A stretch of DNA of 64,000 bases from an uncultured Planctomycetota bacterium (lineage in GTDB: Bacteria > Planctomycetota > Phycisphaerae > Sedimentisphaerales > Anaerobacaceae). Made by a program: the position numbers and the translations under genes. Where the stretch lies: contig CAVVRJ010000016.1 of assembly GCA_963750205.1 (NCBI GenBank), positions 163,400 to 227,399 of the forward strand, written 5' to 3'. A model generated the notes under the pieces. That model was not told where the DNA came from. It worked only from the letters and a program-made list of their open reading frames with translations, and made no database searches. Positions 1,748-49,487 of this stretch are shown piece by piece (within the stretch, counting starts at the first letter, position 1; each line of letters opens with the position of its first letter).

Positions 1748-4112
1748 CTACTCCTGCACGTAGAACACGGACGTAAGCGGCGGGAGAGCCAGGCGAGTAG
1801 TCGTTACGGGCTGACCGGCGGTCTCCGAAGTCGTGACGTCCGCCTTCTTCTGTTGGCCCGTGTGGGGGTCCCAGAGGGCCAGGTTCTTGCTGCCCCGCAG
1901 GACGACCGTGGCATCGACGGCGGCATCGGTGGAATTGGCGAAGAAGTAGATGTCGCGGCCGCTCTTGACTTTGTGGATGTAGGTCAACGCTCCGGCGTAA
2001 GACCGGTTCATCGGCACCGGCCATAGCCAGGGCGTCTGGACATCGACATCACGCACGGGCAAGGCCTCTTTCAGCACCGCGTCCACCATCTTCGGTTCCG
2101 GCCGAGGCAGGAAATAGGCCTTGCCGCCCGCCTGGTTGGGATGGGCGAAGAAGGTCTTGAAATCATCGGTGAAGGCGCGGATCGACGCGGTCATCGGGCC
2201 GTAAGCGGGAATGCCGAACACCTCGCCGACGATCTGCTGGACTTGCTTATCCTGCTTGAACTCGGCGGATCGGGTCGGCAGCTTGCTGGTGGCGATGACC
2301 GTTCCGCCGGCGCGGTAGAAAGTCGAGGATCTTCTGGGCCGTGGCGACGGAGATCGTGTTGCCGCCTGGGACGATCAGGACGCGGAACTCTTCGCGGTTC
2401 TCCTTGTTGTCGAGAATCAGCTTGTTGCCGGCGACGAGGCACTTGCTCTCCAGGATTTCGGGGTGCAGGTAGGTGAAGTCGATGCGCATGCCGCGAAACA
2501 GCATCTCGCCCAGATCCATGTAATCGTTCTCCGGGGCCAGGATGCCGCCTTCCAGGGCATAGTAGAAGCCGGGCTCGCCGCGACCGCGACTGCCGCCGGT
2601 GACGCGGCTCGACCGCCACGGGCTGCGCGAAAGCGTAGTCGGCCTGCAGGGCCGCGATGGGGTAGAGGATGGCGATATCCGCCACGTGCCGGCCGTGACG
2701 CAGCAGGTACTCCATCCGGCCGACGTAGCGGCCCATTTCCGCCGTGGCCGTGTCGCCGGGGCGACCGCCGATCTGGAGATTGACGCCCATGGCGTGCTGG
2801 TCCATCGCCGTGCGGTACACCCACTTGGCGGTCCGGTACTCCGGCTGGTAGGCGGCGTAGGTCTCGGCCATCATCAGGGGCCGGTCATAGTTGTACGCCG
2901 CCGAGGTGACGACCTTGTACGAGACGTTGGAGCGCCCCGTGAACCAGATGTCGTCAATGCCGGGGATTTGCTGGTGCTTGAAGATCTTCATCAGATCGCC
3001 CTGCGTCCCGACGGGATTACGCGACTCCTCCTGGTCCAAGTGGCCCGACATGGCGATGCCGTGCTTCTGGCACCAGGCGGCGATCCGGCCGATGAAGTTC
3101 TCCGCATACAGCTCCGTACGGAAGCCGTACAACGCATTGCGGGCCGCCGCGGTTTCGGGGCCGATGTCGTACCACAGGGCCGGATAGTATTTCATCGGGG
3201 AGTAGCCGAACTTCTTCTCAAAGGCGTCATTGTAGCCGGCGGTCCAGAGCCGGCCGCTGACGGCGTTGTGCAGCGACGGCTCGTCGTAGAACGACATCTT
3301 GATGACCTTCCCGAAATACTCCTTGAGATGGCCGTAATACTGGTCGTACATGACCTCGATCAACTCATCGACGGCCTTGGGATCGAGATAGTCGCAGATG
3401 CCCCGTCGGCGGGCCGGGTCGAGATAGAACACCATGACCTTCCAATTGCCGGCCGGGACCTGGCACGTGAATGTCGCCTTGTCCCGGCTGGTCTGGCCGC
3501 TGACATCGACACATTCGAGCGTGTCGAGGTTCATCATCGCGTGTGCCAATGTAGATCCCGTTGGCGATAGGCAGCGCCAGCTCCGCCTGCGCGGGCCCCG
3601 TCACATCCTTTTCGACTTTCTCCAAGCTCTTCTCGGCGTCATTGGGATACTTCGCATAGAACAGGCCCGCCCGCCATGCCGGTCGGGAACTGCTGCTCGT
3701 CATAGAGCACGTCCATCGGGAGATTGTTCTTCAATCCTTCCTCAATCGCCACTTTGTAGAGCCGGAAGAACTCCTCGTTGAGGTACGTGACGGGTGTGCC
3801 GCCGCTCGCCGCGCCGCTACCGCCTCCCCTGCCGCCGAACCCGCCGGAGGGCGTTATCATGAAGCCGCCGTAGGAGTCACTCTTAACAGCCTGCTGCACC
3901 ATCGCCCGGACGCGTTCTTCGTTCAGAGAGCCCAGGTTGAAGGTGAACCAGGCATGGCCCCGGTACTGGCGAGGCGGGTCCTTGAAGGCGGCATAATCGA
4001 CCGGGCCGCCGTTCGGGTCATTGGCCGCGATGGTCCCTACCTGATTTTGGGCCCCGGCGCTCAACGCCAGAGCCAGAATGAACACACCCAGAGATTTGTC
4101 TGCCCGACCCAT
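1748..4112 (-). pseudogene. secreted glycoside hydrolase (family not assigned), about 790 aa, split over >=4 frames
   Basis: Fragments 3639..4112 (signal peptide MGRADKSLGVFILALALSAGAQ, YDEQQFPTGMAGG), 3365..3703, 2191..3549 (FYDEPSLH, MAETYAAYQ, GHLDQEE), 2247..2519 and 1748..2221 are colinear on the minus strand and read as one protein when the frame is switched. Confidence 0.45.
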
Positions 4113-41717: not shown

Positions 41718-43613
41718 ATGGCCTTGGTATCGCTGCAAGAGATCAGTATCGCCTTTGGCGGGCCCCCGCTGCTGGAGAGGGTCAATCTGCAAATCGACAA
41801 GCACCAGCGGATCGGTCTGCTGGGCCGCAACGGGACCGGCAAGTCGACGCTGATGAAGATCCTCGCCGGACAGGTCGTCCCGGATGCGGGGACCGTGCAG
41901 GCGGAAGCGGGACTGAAGATCGCGTACTTCTCGCAGACGATCCCGCAAGACCTCGAGGGCTCGGTCTTCGAGATCATCGCGCGCGGCCTGGGCCAACGCG
42001 GCGAATTGATGGTGCGCTACCATCGCGAGGAAGCGCGGCTGGCGGCGCATCGGGATCCCGACCACCGCCGGCTGCACCAGTTGCACGAACAACTGGACGC
42101 CCATCGGGCGTGGTCGGTGCTCGAAGAAATCGCGAGCATCACGACCCGCATGGGCCTGGACCCCGACGGGGATTACCCGGCCCTTTCGGGCGGTCAGAAG
42201 CGGCGGGTGCTGCTGGCGGCGGCGCTGGTGTGCGAGCCCGACCTGCTCCTGCTGGATGAGCCGACGAACCACCTGGATATCGACGCGATCGCCTGGCTGG
42301 AGAACTATCTGCTCGGGATGGGCAAGACGCTCTTGTTCGTCACGCACGACCGCCTGCTGCTGCGCCGGCTGGCCACGCGGATCATCGAGATCGACCGGGG
42401 GCAGTTGTTCGACTGGTCGTGCGACTACGACACGTTCCTCGCACGCAAGCAGGCGACGCTCGAGGCCGAGGAGAAGGAGTGGGAACGCTTCGACAAGAAG
42501 CTGGCCCAGGAAGAGGTCTGGATTCGCCAGGGCATCAAGGCCCGGCGCCACCGCAACGAAGGGCGCGTGCTCGCCCTGCAGAAGATGCGCGCCGAGCGTC
42601 AGGCCCGGCGCGAAAAGCTGGGGACCGCCCGGTTGAAGCTGGGCGACGCCCAGAGCTCGGGCGCGATGGTGCTGGAGGCCAAGGGCGTCGGCTATAGCTA
42701 TGACGACCAGCTGCTCATCCGGGATTTCGACGCGCTGGTCACGCGGGGGGACAAGATCGGCATCATCGGACCCAATGGGTGCGGCAAGACCACGCTGGTG
42801 CGGCTGCTGCTGGGCGAGCTGACGCCGCAGACGGGCACGGTCCGGCAGGGAACGCAACTGTCGATCACCTACTTCGACCAGTTGCGCCGCAAGCTCGACG
42901 AGGATAAGAGCGTCTGGGAGAACGTGCTGCCCAACGGGAGCACCGTGACCATCGACGGCAAGAGCAAGCACATCATCGGCTATCTCCAGGACTTTCTGTT
43001 CACGCCGGAGCGGGCCAAGACGCGCGTCCGCTACCTCTCCGGCGGGGAACGCAACCGACTGCTGCTGGCCCAGCTCTTCACCCAACCCGCCAACCTCCTG
43101 GTCCTCGACGAGCCGACCAACGATCTGGACAGCGAGACGCTGGAACTGCTCGAAGAGCTGCTGGTCAACTTCCCGGGGACCGTGCTGCTGATCTGCCACG
43201 ACCGGGCGTTTCTCGACAACGTCGTCACCAGCACCTGGGTCTTCACGGGCGCCGGCGCGATCGCAGAGTACGTCGGCGGCTACCAGGACTGGCGCCGGCA
43301 GCAGAGCCAGGAAGCGCCCGCGCCCGAGAAGCCCCAGGTTGACAAGAAGAAGCTCTACCAGGAAGCCCGCAAGGCCCGCCAAACGCGGAAGCTCTCGTTC
43401 AAGGAGTCCCGGGAGTTGGAGTCGTTGCCGGCGCTGATCGAGTCGCTGGAAGGCGAGCTGGCCGTCCTGCACCAACAACTGGCCGACCCGGCGTTCTATC
43501 GCCACCCCGACAACGTCATCCTCGCCACGAAGCGCCTGGCCGAGCTCGAAGCCCAACACGCCCAAGCCTTCGCGCGCTGGGAGCACCTCGAATCCATCGC
43601 CGCGGCATCCTGA
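41718..43613 (+). CDS. ABC-F family ATPase (two ABC domains, Uup/YheS-like)
   Basis: Two Walker A motifs (GRNGTGKST, GPNGCGKTT), two LSGG signatures, and an inter-domain linker. The 791-aa antisense ORF is a shadow. Confidence 0.85.
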   Translation: MALVSLQEISIAFGGPPLLERVNLQIDKHQRIGLLGRNGTGKSTLMKILAGQVVPDAGTVQAEAGLKIAYFSQTIPQDLEGSVFEIIARGLGQRGELMVRYHREEARLAAHRDPDHRRLHQLHEQLDAHRAWSVLEEIASITTRMGLDPDGDYPALSGGQKRRVLLAAALVCEPDLLLLDEPTNHLDIDAIAWLENYLLGMGKTLLFVTHDRLLLRRLATRIIEIDRGQLFDWSCDYDTFLARKQATLEAEEKEWERFDKKLAQEEVWIRQGIKARRHRNEGRVLALQKMRAERQARREKLGTARLKLGDAQSSGAMVLEAKGVGYSYDDQLLIRDFDALVTRGDKIGIIGPNGCGKTTLVRLLLGELTPQTGTVRQGTQLSITYFDQLRRKLDEDKSVWENVLPNGSTVTIDGKSKHIIGYLQDFLFTPERAKTRVRYLSGGERNRLLLAQLFTQPANLLVLDEPTNDLDSETLELLEELLVNFPGTVLLICHDRAFLDNVVTSTWVFTGAGAIAEYVGGYQDWRRQQSQEAPAPEKPQVDKKKLYQEARKARQTRKLSFKESRELESLPALIESLEGELAVLHQQLADPAFYRHPDNVILATKRLAELEAQHAQAFARWEHLESIAAAS

Positions 43614-45777: not shown

Positions 45778-46180
45778 TGAGGGTCCTCATCGACACCTGC
45801 GTCTGGTCGAAGGTGCTGCGGCGCAAGCGCCGGACAAGGACCTCGCGGCCTTGATTGAGGACCTGATCCGGGAGGGGCGTGTCGTGTTGATCGGGCCGAT
45901 CCGACAGGAGCTTCTCTCCGGCGTGCCCAACGCGGCGCAGTTCGAGATTCTCCGCAAGGTGCTCGATCCCTTCGAGGAGATCTCCCTGAGAACGGAACAC
46001 TTCACGCGAGCCGCCGAATTCAGCAACCAATGCCGCCGCAAGGGTGTCCAAGGTTCAACCATCGATTTCCTGATCTGTGCCGTGGCCGCCCTCGAAGAAC
46101 TCCAGATCCTGACCACCGATTCCGACTTCCTCCGCTACGCCAAGCACCTCCCCATCAACCTCTGCGGCATCAGCACCTGA
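45774..46180 (+). CDS. vapC: PIN-domain toxin VapC (one apparent 1-nt deletion near 45835)
   Basis: MMRVLIDTCVWSKVLRRKR runs into a stop. The same PIN domain continues in ORF 45851..46180 (DLAALIEDLIREGRVVLIGPIRQELLSG...ILTTDSDF). A CCC->CC change would restore the frame. Confidence 0.6.
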
Positions 46181-46281
46181 TCTCGGGGTAGGAATTCCGC
46201 GGCTGTCTGCGGGGTCGTTGCTCAAGGCAACAGCCGTTGCAGCTTCTTATACAGCTCTGCGCCCCACCCAAGCGTGGAGCG

Positions 46282-46400
46282 GGGCTTCGCAGGGCCTGCC
46301 CTCAAATTAGCAATTAACGGGGAGTGTTCCTTGGTGGGGACTACGAGGATCAGCCTCCAAATCAGCAATTAGCAGATCGAGGGGGCAAAGGGGCAGGCGT
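46282..46400. repeat. ~120-nt repeat element copy R3
   Basis: About 95% identical to R2 over roughly 118 nt and lies immediately after vapC. Together with R2 it brackets the vapBC module as direct repeats. Confidence 0.8.
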
Positions 46401-46563
46401 TGGGCAAAGGGGATTGCCGCCCAGCCTGTCACGGCATCGTCTCCGGTCACCATGCTCCCGCCCCAAGCTTGTCCCCCCGCAGGCGGGGAGCGGTAAACCT
46501 CCCCCGCACGACCGCCGGGGGCGTGCCCGGCTTCACCGGATGCCGGCAGCCACAGGCGTTCTT

Positions 46564-46600
46564 GGGTTCCCAAACGCGATACGTCGCGTTGGGGAGACCC
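46564..46600. repeat. palindromic REP-like element, same family (copy 2)
   Basis: gggttcccaaacgcgatacgtcgcgttggggagaccc. Confidence 0.7.
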
Positions 46601-46660
46601 TCTCGTCCCTAGCGTGACTCGCTTCGTTTCCTGCCCCGATTCCCAGCAATGAATTGCTGG

Positions 46661-46696
46661 GCTATGGCCTGGGTTCCCAAACGCGAAACTCTGCGT
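46661..46696. repeat. palindromic REP-like element, same family (copy 3)
   Basis: gggttcccaaacgcgaaactctgcgtttggggtccc. Confidence 0.7.
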
Positions 46697-46942
46697 TTGG
46701 GGTCCCTCTTTCGCCCTCCGGGCTGGACTGGCTTTAGGGATGAGCATTTCTCCCGTATTTTGGGTTTTTGTATAACATACAGACATCGAGAGACGTCTAT
46801 TATAGAGTGCGGCTGCCGCTGGAGGGGGCCGCGACGATGCGCGGGGTCAGGGACTCCGCGGAGGGGACGGGAGCAAAGAAACGTCCATCGGGGAGAAGTG
46901 GCAGGTGGGAAGTTGGAAGTGTCAAGCCAAGAGGGGCTCCGA

Positions 46943-47442
46943 GGGGAACCCGGTCGGTGGTACAAACAAAGCCAATTGGAAGAGAGTTTCAAGTTGGAGG
47001 TGTCAAGTGTCAAGAGGGCAAGGCAGTGGTCCGTGGTCCGAGCTTCAAACTTCACACTCCACACGGCAAACTCGGCCGACGGCCATTCGCGCGAAACGAA
47101 GCCAATCGAGCGCCCCGACTCCGCGTTTGGTGGTTCCTCCGTCCGCCAGAAACGCCTGGCGGCGTCACTACGAACGAGGCGACCGTGCCAAACAAAGCCA
47201 ATTCCCGGCCGGGCCCGCCGTCCGCTTTGGCCGCCCGCCCCTGGGGTCGGGAGTCTGCCGCACACCAAAGATGCGAAACAAAGCCAATTTGCCGCGAGGA
47301 CGTAATGACGGCCAATCGGGAGATTGGCGGTCCCAGGAAATATGCGAAACGAACCCAATTTCCGGGGGAGGGTGCGGACTGGCCCCGGTCGGCCAAGGCG
47401 GGCAGACCCCCGCTGGGGTTGGGCGTGCGAAACAAAGCCAAT
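46943..47442. repeat. array of six ~19-nt direct repeats (consensus rTGCGAAACAAAGCCAATTy) with irregular 50-110-nt spacers, in a 1.1-kb ORF-free region
   Basis: Copies at 46943, 47091, 47186, 47272, 47343 and 47425. Each spacer contains its own short hairpin (for example CGCCAGaaacgcCTGGCG, GCCAATCgggaGATTGGC). The overlapping multi-frame ORFs here are Arg/Gly-rich shadows. Confidence 0.7.
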
Positions 47443-47665
47443 TCAGGAGGAGTCTCAAGTGGAAAGTGTCGAGTTTGAAGTGCGGCGTTTGAAGCCGGAG
47501 GGCTTGCCGGCGGTTCTGCTTGCTTGACCCTTGAAACTCCAAACTTGACACTTCGCGCAAACGTATGGTTCTGCGAACGAGCTTGCCAACCTTGCGTTCC
47601 GCCGGTATAGTTCTGCCCACGTGCAGGATGCATTGTGAGCGAACCCAAGCGATCTCTCATCCGGT

Positions 47666-47727
47666 GGATTGAGATTGCTTCCCCTGCCTTCGCAGGGGCA
47701 GGCGTTGCGCGGTCCTCGCAATGACAT
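47666..47727. repeat. variant copy of the GATTGAGATTGCTTC...CCTCGCAATGACAT element with an internal CCCCTGCCttcgCAGGGGCAGG palindrome
   Basis: Lies 48 nt upstream of ettA. A further copy is truncated by the window start at 1..35. Confidence 0.6.
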
Positions 47728-47774
47728 GCGGGGCGTTTGTCTCGTTGGCTCTGATCCGATGATGGGGATTCTGC

Positions 47775-49487
<1,713 letters not shown>

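Follow-up and report, generated by a model that had tools for sequence, protein, structure and literature searches.

A six-box array upstream of ettA in an uncultured planctomycete, the apparent orphan copy of a widespread chromosomal element

Here we describe an array of six short direct repeats, hereafter boxes, in a stretch of 64,000 nucleotides (nt) from an uncultured Planctomycetota bacterium; the window denotes this whole stretch. Sequence comparison indicates that the array belongs to a widespread chromosomal element and represents the downstream box array of one copy, now decayed and orphaned. As reconstructed from aligned loci, the intact element has four parts, namely a strong sigma-70 promoter, a heptamer-rich leader, a gene for a protein of ~190 amino acids (aa) and one to ~15 boxes, which directly follow the gene and are separated by modules from a recurrent repertoire. 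In the window copy the promoter appears weakened, the gene appears reduced to a Shine-Dalgarno (SD)/ATG remnant, and the six boxes are intact. Boxes persist in many copies after decay of the gene in cis, are under strong constraint relative to their spacers and are tightly linked to the 3' side of one gene family. Tentatively, we take the boxes to be multivalent recognition sites for a trans-acting factor, which would probably be the family's own protein.

Six boxes between vapC and ettA

The intergenic region at 46180-47775 has vapC (PIN) on one side and an EttA-type ABC-F gene (47775-49487) on the other, and vapB, vapC and ettA are all on the + strand. Searching with GCGAAACAAAGCCAATT gave six matches (0-3 mismatches), on the + strand only, at 46961, 47091, 47187, 47273, 47344 and 47427. 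No further copy occurs across the rest of the window, the chance expectation is 0.05 matches, and none of 100 shuffled sequences reached six copies; the six same-orientation repeats reported by an earlier sequence-only reading are therefore confirmed. All six boxes fit the 13-nt core AAACRAASCCAAT exactly. Their start-to-start distances are 130, 96, 86, 71 and 83 nt, leaving spacers of 113, 79, 69, 54 and 66 nt with a guanine-cytosine (GC) content of 57-79%. The features are listed here in order of position.

46748-46776, + strand: apparent decayed sigma-70 promoter remnant (-35 TTCTCC at 46748-46753, 17-nt spacer, -10 TATAAC at 46771-46776)
46757-46837, + strand: leader segment common to the related locus L121 (blastn against L121 2798-2880, 76% over 83 nt)
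46821-46839, + strand: apparent SD/start remnant of the family gene (GGAGGG at 46821-46826, ATG at 46837-46839), with no family open reading frame (ORF) after it
46876-46926, + strand: possible degenerate seventh unit (relic box AAACG-TCCAT at ~46879-46889, then a GTGTCAAG-type module)
46961-46977, + strand: box 1, TACAAACAAAGCCAATT; its core AAACAAAGCCAAT matches the consensus
46984-47073, + strand: module after box 1, a long imperfect hairpin made of GTGTCAA/GTTTCAA heptamer-like words
47091-47107, + strand: box 2, GCGAAACGAAGCCAATC
47187-47203, + strand: box 3, GCCAAACAAAGCCAATT
47273-47289, + strand: box 4, GCGAAACAAAGCCAATT
47311-47329, + strand: recurrent module hairpin, GCCAATC-GGGA-GATTGGC (spacer fold z = -1.5)
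47344-47360, + strand: box 5, GCGAAACGAACCCAATT
47427-47443, + strand: box 6, GCGAAACAAAGCCAATT
47459-47558, + strand: terminal long hairpin, a paralogue of the box-1 module (repeats D1, I2, I6)
47583-47611, + strand: sigma-70-like promoter of ettA, outside the element (TTGCCA-17-TATAGT, 10/12 matches)

The spacers had also been described as GC-rich, unique and each carrying a hairpin of its own. Their composition was borne out but their uniqueness was not, since they have matches in two related loci (68% in L121 and 72% in L120) and within the window itself (75%, between 46964-47014 and 47430-47480). These two segments belong to direct-repeat family D1, of which 46876-46926 is a third member (63% identity), and the string AAACG-TCCAT inside it may, judging from its letters, be a relic box. 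Neither did the hairpins hold up: the fold z-scores of the five spacers (-0.1, -0.3, +1.4, -1.5 and +0.2) are those of shuffled GC-rich sequence. The module after box 1 (z = -0.1), which has homologues in L120 (1172-1302, 72%) and in the first L121 module, folds no better than its shuffles. Only the terminal hairpin at 47459-47558 stands out, with -48.2 kcal/mol, z = -2.97 and 0 of 200 shuffles equal to it. A terminator-like stem within it (47494-47511) is followed by GGTTCTGCTT, forming a + strand terminator-like site, and the hairpin probably marks the 3' end of the element. The small hairpin at 47311-47329 has counterparts in L121, L070 and L105 (GCCGATC-(G/C)GGA-GATCGGC) and in L005 (GCCAATC..GATTGCC); relative to the first three, both sides of the stem have changed from G-C to A-T in the window and L005.

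Tandem Repeats Finder reported two 7-nt doublets only in this region, tRNA and tmRNA searches found none, and Rfam 15 at the gathering threshold gave zero matches in the window. The best sub-threshold Rfam match near the array, Acido-Lenti-1 at 46642-46674 (26 bits versus a threshold of 37, E = 0.002), lies outside it. This match falls on a simple hairpin, CCCAGCAAT-GA-ATTGCTGGG, and the range in Acidobacteria and the Planctomycetes-Verrucomicrobia-Chlamydiae group that the name suggests resembles that of the box arrays.

The box family and its linked gene

A syntenic counterpart of the window array is found among the loci of the closest EttA homologues, at L121, where an EttA 87% identical to that of the window lies in the same ettA/GH16 neighbourhood and 11 boxes (2935-3807) sit just upstream of ettA, 10 of which fit the core perfectly. 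Segments shared with the window are 68-83% identical, and orthologous spacers are either 68-76% identical or replaced. A two-module block aligns at 68% (window 47311-47443, L121 3285-3417), and the boxes inside it differ at two degenerate positions only. The window thus has more than one same-strand core and, at an orthologous locus, a homologous array with shared modules. At L120 (EttA 88% identical), only 113 nt lie upstream of ettA, and 13 boxes precede the neighbouring CotH gene instead; window segment 46964-47106 aligns there with 1172-1302 at 72%. Presence of the array upstream of ettA therefore differs between orthologous loci. Public gene calls translate the arrays of L121 (2980-3927) and L120 (519-1400) into 'genes' of 293-315 aa without Pfam match, the L121 stretch being called as a 315-aa ORF.

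We scanned one genome per species for two perfect copies of AAACRAASCCAAT 55-85 nt apart, for which our own estimate of the chance expectation is about 0.1 hits. The scan yielded at least 119 loci with same-strand AAACRAASCCAAT arrays, a sample that its design (two perfect boxes 68-98 nt apart) biases towards a 90-nt module and in which variation at core positions is suppressed. All relatives are metagenome-assembled genomes (MAGs) or metagenome contigs, and gene calls on the loci are crude. Among the matches listed, the carriers are Planctomycetota (Phycisphaerae, Sedimentisphaerales, Pirellulales, Isosphaeraceae and Gemmataceae), Acidobacteriota (Bryobacterales and Solibacteraceae), Zixibacteria, Sumerlaeota, Chthonomonadaceae and Thermomicrobiales, with up to seven of these loci from one MAG and at least 6-7 arrays per MAG. 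The pattern is present in only 2 of the 2.9 million viral contigs of IMG/VR.

In almost every locus all boxes, from 2 to about 15 per array, are on one strand, and the logo of 547 box instances reads (G)(C)(A)AAAC[A/G]AA[C/G]CCAAT(T). The box is unchanged from genomes of 45% GC to those of 69% and across phyla, a constraint that implies a specific molecular partner and function. Box spacing peaks at 10-11 nt, owing to tandem CAAA[C/G]CCAAT(T) sub-repeats, at 21-25 nt and, sharply, at 89-91 nt. The last class corresponds to a conserved module (..CCGAAAGGCCAAAATGAACGTAAAC..ACAAAGGAKTTATGA..) without conserved reading frame, for which RNAalifold gave no consensus structure on either strand. We rejected this ~90-nt module as a coding repeat: it contains ATG- and SD-like strings, some at 30-codon spacing, but ATG is often ACA or ACG, stops occur, the spacing varies from 86 to 94 nt and a 3-nt periodicity is lacking. 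The order in which modules recur differs from genome to genome. Rfam searches of 15 related loci returned nothing relevant, only an unrelated group II intron and a TPP riboswitch. When spacings of 25-170 nt are taken without the 90-nt class, a Fourier peak appears at 9.5 nt (power 8.6), with none at 10.5 or 3 nt; we attribute it to non-independent module families.

A promoter scan of 129 arrays found 31 same-strand versus 8 opposite-strand promoters 100-400 nt upstream of the first box, and a second same-strand enrichment (20 hits) 0-200 nt past the last box. The upstream promoter is stereotyped in about 30 loci (ttcacTTGACA-N17-TATAAT/TATGAT) and after it come a leader rich in heptamers, an SD and an ORF beginning M(A/S)TEAQILANRRNAQKSTGPRT. 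By tblastn, an intact gene of this family (about 170-260 conserved residues) lies on the same strand directly upstream of the array in seven loci, L023, L066, L091 and L103 in Planctomycetota, L051 and L077 in Bryobacteraceae and L008 in Zixibacteria; it is truncated in L039 and L058, and about eight codons are left in L011. Loci chosen by their protein give the same picture, with 3 and 6 boxes starting ~200 nt past the stop codon in two Sedimentisphaerales (P0126, accession HUU19665.1, and P0223) and one box each in P0507 and P0496. Most arrays retain gene remnants only, that is, promoter, SD/start remnant and boxes, and such orphans are the majority in GC-rich relatives. Five ORF-less copies (L100, L019, L067, L044 and L048) keep perfect -35 and -10 hexamers and leaders that are ~60% identical. 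Beyond the -35 on the left, the copies show no sequence conservation.

The window copy is apparently tied to this gene family by what looks like a decayed promoter and start-codon remnant at 46748-46839, which the sequence-only reading had not seen. The promoter remnant, which the promoter scan did not call, is colinear with the ttcacTTGACA-N17-TATGAT/TATAAT of the five ORF-less copies. The SD/start remnant aligns with GGAGGG..(A/G)TG of these copies and with aggaggNNNNNNNATG-ATEAQILANRR of intact and truncated ones. Searching the whole window by tblastn with family proteins gave nothing significant, so that no intact 'AQILANRRNAQKSTGPRT' gene lies directly upstream and the window copy is an orphan.

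Heptamers (GTGTCAA, ATCCAGN/ATCGAGN, GATTGCG and GAACTAC) fill leaders and modules, for example at 47000-47014 and 47026-47040 in the window, at 3583-3720 in L125, and in the leaders of L087, L099 and L060. The TAACTGA heptamer repeats of Beggiatoaceae and cyanobacteria are described as occupying many intergenic regions in distant lineages with a presumed regulatory role (PMC4679880). The box elements likewise place short direct repeats in many intergenic regions of distant lineages, and their leaders and modules are rich in tandem heptamers; the sequence and unit length differ, and the box arrays are set apart by long, variable spacers and by the gene family linked to them. A second conserved leader type (..gttagccagcaggctaac.taaaccgccagcaggcgaag.., with two neat hairpins) occupies the first ~100 nt after the -10 in L011, L003, L055, L072 and L110; no Rfam family matches it, and it may represent a structured RNA in its own right.

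Boxes also occur, in translation, in the tails of the annotated ORFs. Of 150 family representatives, 119 have a translated box in the tail, as have about 106 of 120 acidobacterial homologues, compared with 0-4 within the first 140 residues. Among the representatives the three frames are used about equally (60/77/77), indicating that the ORF tail is read-through of non-coding DNA. Together with the lack of 3-nt periodicity, the use of all frames argues that the boxes are nucleotide-level, non-coding elements. Many family proteins are annotated at 250-450 aa where the ORF reads through boxes.

Among the 120 acidobacterial homologues, the box after the gene is reverse in 68, forward in 39 and in both orientations in 1, making the two almost mutually exclusive; recognition therefore does not look simply strand-specific. 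A single reverse-oriented box follows a proline-rich stretch in acidobacterial homologues (L133 3011-3023, L136-L138 3071-3083 and P0391-P0510), and is read as ..PE-LASF-RQ.. in 52 proteins or ..EIGFVP.. in 16, never in the third frame. Coding of the IGFV peptide on the reverse strand, suggested by degenerate positions that fall on third codon positions (ATT-GGS-TTY-GTT), was rejected, as Acidobacteriota use two frames (LASF 52, IGFV 16) and forward boxes all three; we treat the pattern as coincidence plus ascertainment. A sigma-54 promoter on the reverse box was likewise discarded by inspection, the GG and GC being 9 nt apart and not 10.

The family protein, all-helical and ~190 aa long, has at its N-terminus a basic peptide that hardly varies, M.TEAQILANRRNAQKSTGPRT.EGK. 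At 50% identity the family counts 23,208 representatives (E <= 1e-3), 7,042 of them with E <= 1e-10, and another search gave 3,342 clusters at 90% identity; many members are on ~1-kb contigs, and every source name is 'hypothetical protein'. Searches of Pfam, NCBIfam, PADLOC and PHROGs with the protein gave zero matches, a PDB sequence search gave none, and a literature search by box sequence, peptide and keywords found nothing specific to box or family. The AlphaFold2 model (mean predicted local distance difference test score 72) is all-helical, forms a pair of long helical hairpins and has a basic N-terminus of lower confidence.

The genes that follow the arrays are diverse. Long same-strand ORFs downstream (68 in all) match 107 Pfam families, including GidA, topoisomerase, TrpA, aconitase and ribosomal protein S9, and such variety points to no functional theme. 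According to the crude gene calls, boxes and downstream gene share a strand in 58 cases and lie on opposite strands in 35. A sigma-70-like promoter sits between array and next gene in L045, L100, L104, L007 and the window (47583-47611), so that the array is not the 5' untranslated region of that gene. In several independent samples of Sedimentisphaerales (L124-L130) an intact gene and array lie immediately upstream of prmC, the release-factor methyltransferase gene, and in L125 (3602-4921) and L126 (3628-4968) array read-through extends the prmC ORFs by ~80 residues. The orphan arrays of the window and L121 adjoin ettA, which like prmC is translation-related; this may be coincidence.

Possible roles of the boxes

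On the reading that we favour, with some reserve, boxes would recruit a sequence-specific trans-acting factor, most plausibly the family's own protein, which an intact copy at another place in the genome would supply. An orphan array would on this view present clustered high-affinity sites on DNA, on a transcript from the element's promoter, or on both, and in the window these sites would lie just upstream of the ettA promoter. This reading draws on the gene-box link, sampled both by motif and by protein, on boxes that stay constant while their spacers change, and on the prediction that boxes are unpaired on the sense transcript. Multivalency finds support in the tandem 10-11-nt sub-repeats and in arrays of up to ~15 boxes. 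Binding could act in regulation, in insulation, in organising the nucleoid or in propagating the element, at the DNA or RNA level.

Several observations weigh against recognition by the family protein. Its model has no significant Foldseek match in the PDB and no recognisable nucleic-acid-binding fold. Helical 10.5-bp phasing of the boxes is absent beyond the 10-11-nt doublets, which tells against phased DNA binding. The perfect -35 and -10 hexamers of ORF-less copies suggest that the transcript matters, and this clue and the two acidobacterial orientations pull in opposite ways. Finally, the window promoter is decayed, so the window copy may be inert, and no intact family gene lies within the 64 kb, so that supply in trans is assumed.

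Replication iterons bound by Rep and the parC-ParR system of plasmid R1 are the nearest protein-bound arrays, and resemble the present ones in having a small protein gene beside short direct repeats, in the tandem spacing of some boxes at 10-11 bp and in the existence of orphan arrays. Unlike them, box arrays are chromosomal, many per genome and downstream of the gene instead of upstream; their spacing is irregular (10-130 nt), and they lack a replication or partition context. No ribbon-helix-helix, helix-turn-helix or winged-helix fold was detected in the family protein, whose binding to the box is itself our inference. The sequence-only reading had proposed either an iteron-like protein-binding array or RNAs sharing a box. 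Both ideas are still live in general form, with irregular spacing and no rep or par gene.

An unlikely but credible alternative is that the element is selfish or mobile. The gene plus array would be the autonomous form and the ORF-less promoter-plus-array copies non-autonomous ones, as miniature inverted-repeat transposable elements are to insertion sequences; boxes would be a cis-acting end or a recombination or target site, and modules would be cassettes or scars left by each use of a box, which would build box-module-box arrays. The at least 6-7 arrays per MAG beside unrelated genes, the variable presence at orthologous ettA loci (L120 versus the window and L121) and the recurrence of modules in changed order between genomes all fit this explanation. 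So do the derivatives with internal deletions that keep the promoter, the first ~8 codons and the array (L011, L039, L058), the patchy distribution among phyla and the many family proteins on ~1-kb contigs, as expected of repeats that break assemblies. However, the protein matches no fold or domain of a transposase, recombinase or reverse transcriptase, a limited inspection, confined to left ends, revealed no terminal inverted repeat or target-site duplication, and the viral contigs contained just two hits. The intact gene at one conserved site upstream of prmC in several Sedimentisphaerales samples, moreover, looks vertically inherited.

Repetitive extragenic palindromic (REP) sequences with their bacterial interspersed mosaic elements (BIMEs), as in Escherichia coli, and the pneumococcal BOX elements are similarly intergenic, multi-copy, modular, variable in copy number at orthologous loci, co-transcribed with the genes beside them and frequently annotated as ORFs by mistake. 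A REP unit, however, is an imperfect palindrome, usually in alternating orientation, and is associated with a REP-associated tyrosine transposase (RAYT), whereas the box is 13-17 nt long, not self-complementary and on one strand per array, has its hairpins in the variable parts and not in the conserved unit, and comes with its own promoter and a specific small-protein gene and without a RAYT-type transposase. The sequence-only reading had held that a repeat frequent throughout the genome would be a generic REP. Formally the box is that frequent in relatives; the generic REP explanation nevertheless fails, because the box is non-palindromic, strand-consistent within arrays and tied to a specific gene family.

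Rather unlikely, too, is a non-coding RNA, in which the conserved promoter would drive a 0.5-1.5-kb transcript of single-stranded A/C-rich boxes alternating with GC-rich structured modules. Such an RNA would serve an RNA-binding factor as sponge or scaffold, in the manner of CsrB/RsmZ or CrcZ, or be cut at the boxes into small RNAs. Consistent with it, promoters 100-400 nt upstream are mostly on the box strand (31 versus 8), the hexamers are invariant and the leader is ~60% identical in ORF-less copies, and folding of the sense transcript predicts boxes to be unpaired (0.55-0.73, versus 0.31-0.36 for spacers). The window array is closed by a terminator-like hairpin, and one module hairpin shows a compensatory change. 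Against it stand the lack of any Rfam match, the lack of an RNAalifold consensus in the ~90-nt module on either strand, spacer folds equal to shuffles, the reversed box after 68 of 120 acidobacterial homologues and the degenerate window promoter. CsrB/RsmZ (with GGA) and CrcZ (with A-rich CA motifs) share with the array an own promoter, a repeated single-stranded motif between stem-loops (six here) and a terminator-like end. The box, however, is neither GGA nor AANAANAA, is reversed in one branch of the family and is not accompanied by a covariation-supported structure, so that only the general architecture, unpaired boxes between structured spacers, is in common. Those defining features of REP/BIME, iterons and sponge RNAs that could be tested are all absent from the box arrays.

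A cluster of transcription insulators or terminators between the upstream operon and ettA is improbable. The minus-strand box, AAUUGGCUUUGUUUCGC, could serve as a U/G-rich tail after a GC hairpin, and the C-rich, G-poor plus-strand boxes could load Rho. Three minus-strand terminator-like calls do take boxes as T-tails, reverse arrays begin 25-100 nt past a stop codon in L103, L039 and L073, and the L045 arrays sit between a terminator and the next promoter. Yet neither kind of terminator needs 13 nt conserved across phyla, hairpins are usually not next to the tail, reverse-oriented arrays bring along a promoter on the strand of their boxes (L103), as many as 15 copies in one array far exceed what termination requires, and the reading gives no account of the tie to one gene family.

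A degenerate array of the clustered and regularly interspaced short palindromic repeats known as CRISPR, a plasmid iteron or centromere and a protein-coding repeat have in their favour the direct repeats with variable spacers and an ORF-free look whose assessment is difficult in GC-rich DNA, spurious ORFs of 195-249 aa running across the array on either strand, but they are effectively excluded by a core of 13-17 nt, spacers of about 0-113 nt that recur between genomes, the lack of cas, rep or par genes, a chromosomal, multi-copy setting beside housekeeping genes, and equal use of frames without 3-nt periodicity. CRISPR repeats are ~23-55 nt long with near-constant, unique spacers, unlike boxes of 13-17 nt with recurrent spacers of 54-113 nt in the window and about 0-130 nt elsewhere. 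The attC sites of integrons and of clusters of attC sites lacking an integrase (CALIN) are imperfect palindromes of 57-141 nt (RYYYAAC...GTTRRRY) between ORF cassettes, whereas the box, as read from the sequence, has no inverse core partner and its modules are non-coding stretches of 20-110 nt. The type III toxin-antitoxin system ToxI/ToxN also couples a non-coding direct-repeat array to one small protein gene. ToxI, however, consists of near-perfect 34-36-nt head-to-tail repeats upstream of the toxin gene, and the 13-nt boxes have heterogeneous spacers and lie downstream; Tandem Repeats Finder showed no ~35-nt tandem array in the window, and the family protein has no PADLOC match.

Neighbourhood and significance

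In the window the array has ABC-F, PD40, VapBC, EttA and GH16-like genes as neighbours. The adjoining toxin-antitoxin module that the sequence-only reading had pointed out is indeed present, VapBC lying upstream, and its view of an unclassified, non-CRISPR array also stands, with no cas gene among the 10 long ORFs scanned (41.4-51.8 kb). The Rep/ParB-like proteins that it had suggested looking for were not encountered, as no rep or parB gene is among the same ORFs, and the picture of an isolated defence or plasmid relic at an island's end is contradicted by a chromosomal multi-copy family in several phyla, beside diverse housekeeping genes. Two ABC-F genes lie 4 kb apart, a Uup-like one with a C-terminal ABC_tran_CTD (41718-43613) and the EttA-like one (47775-49487), flanking the PD40 gene, the VapBC module and the array.

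The REP-like palindromes noted nearby are real. One of the form TGGGTTCCCAAACGCG....CGCGTTTGGGG has two copies, at 46563-46594 and 46670-46701 (84% identical), is unrelated to the box and occurs also in L120 at 60-99 (87-88%). A palindromic element of the GAGATTGCTTC...CTCGCAATGACA type lies at 47668-47735, just 5' of ettA, with 46389-46405 matching 47694-47710. Similar strings are found in L040 (tgtcattgcgagcgtggcgaagcaatctc) and L067, and probably represent a separate dispersed repeat family.

The box, its arrays and the linked family are apparently undescribed, as far as the libraries and literature searched reach, and no current repeat, RNA or defence family describes such a protein-box system. 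We consider it an evenly balanced matter whether the box arrays and the 'AQILANRRNAQKSTGPRT' protein together form an unrecognised protein-nucleic-acid system across Planctomycetota, Acidobacteriota, Zixibacteria and other phyla, with one or a few intact genes and many promoter-bearing orphan arrays per genome; such a system might represent selfish elements of a new class or, alternatively, a network with regulatory or architectural tasks throughout the genome. An unannotated family of more than 23,000 clusters is here tied to a constant 13-nt box. Recognising the arrays would clean up annotation in planctomycetal and acidobacterial MAGs, where they give rise to spurious hypothetical proteins and false C-terminal tails, and they probably contribute to assembly breaks. 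Protein and box form a testable pair, in phyla with almost no known cis-regulatory or mobile-element biology.

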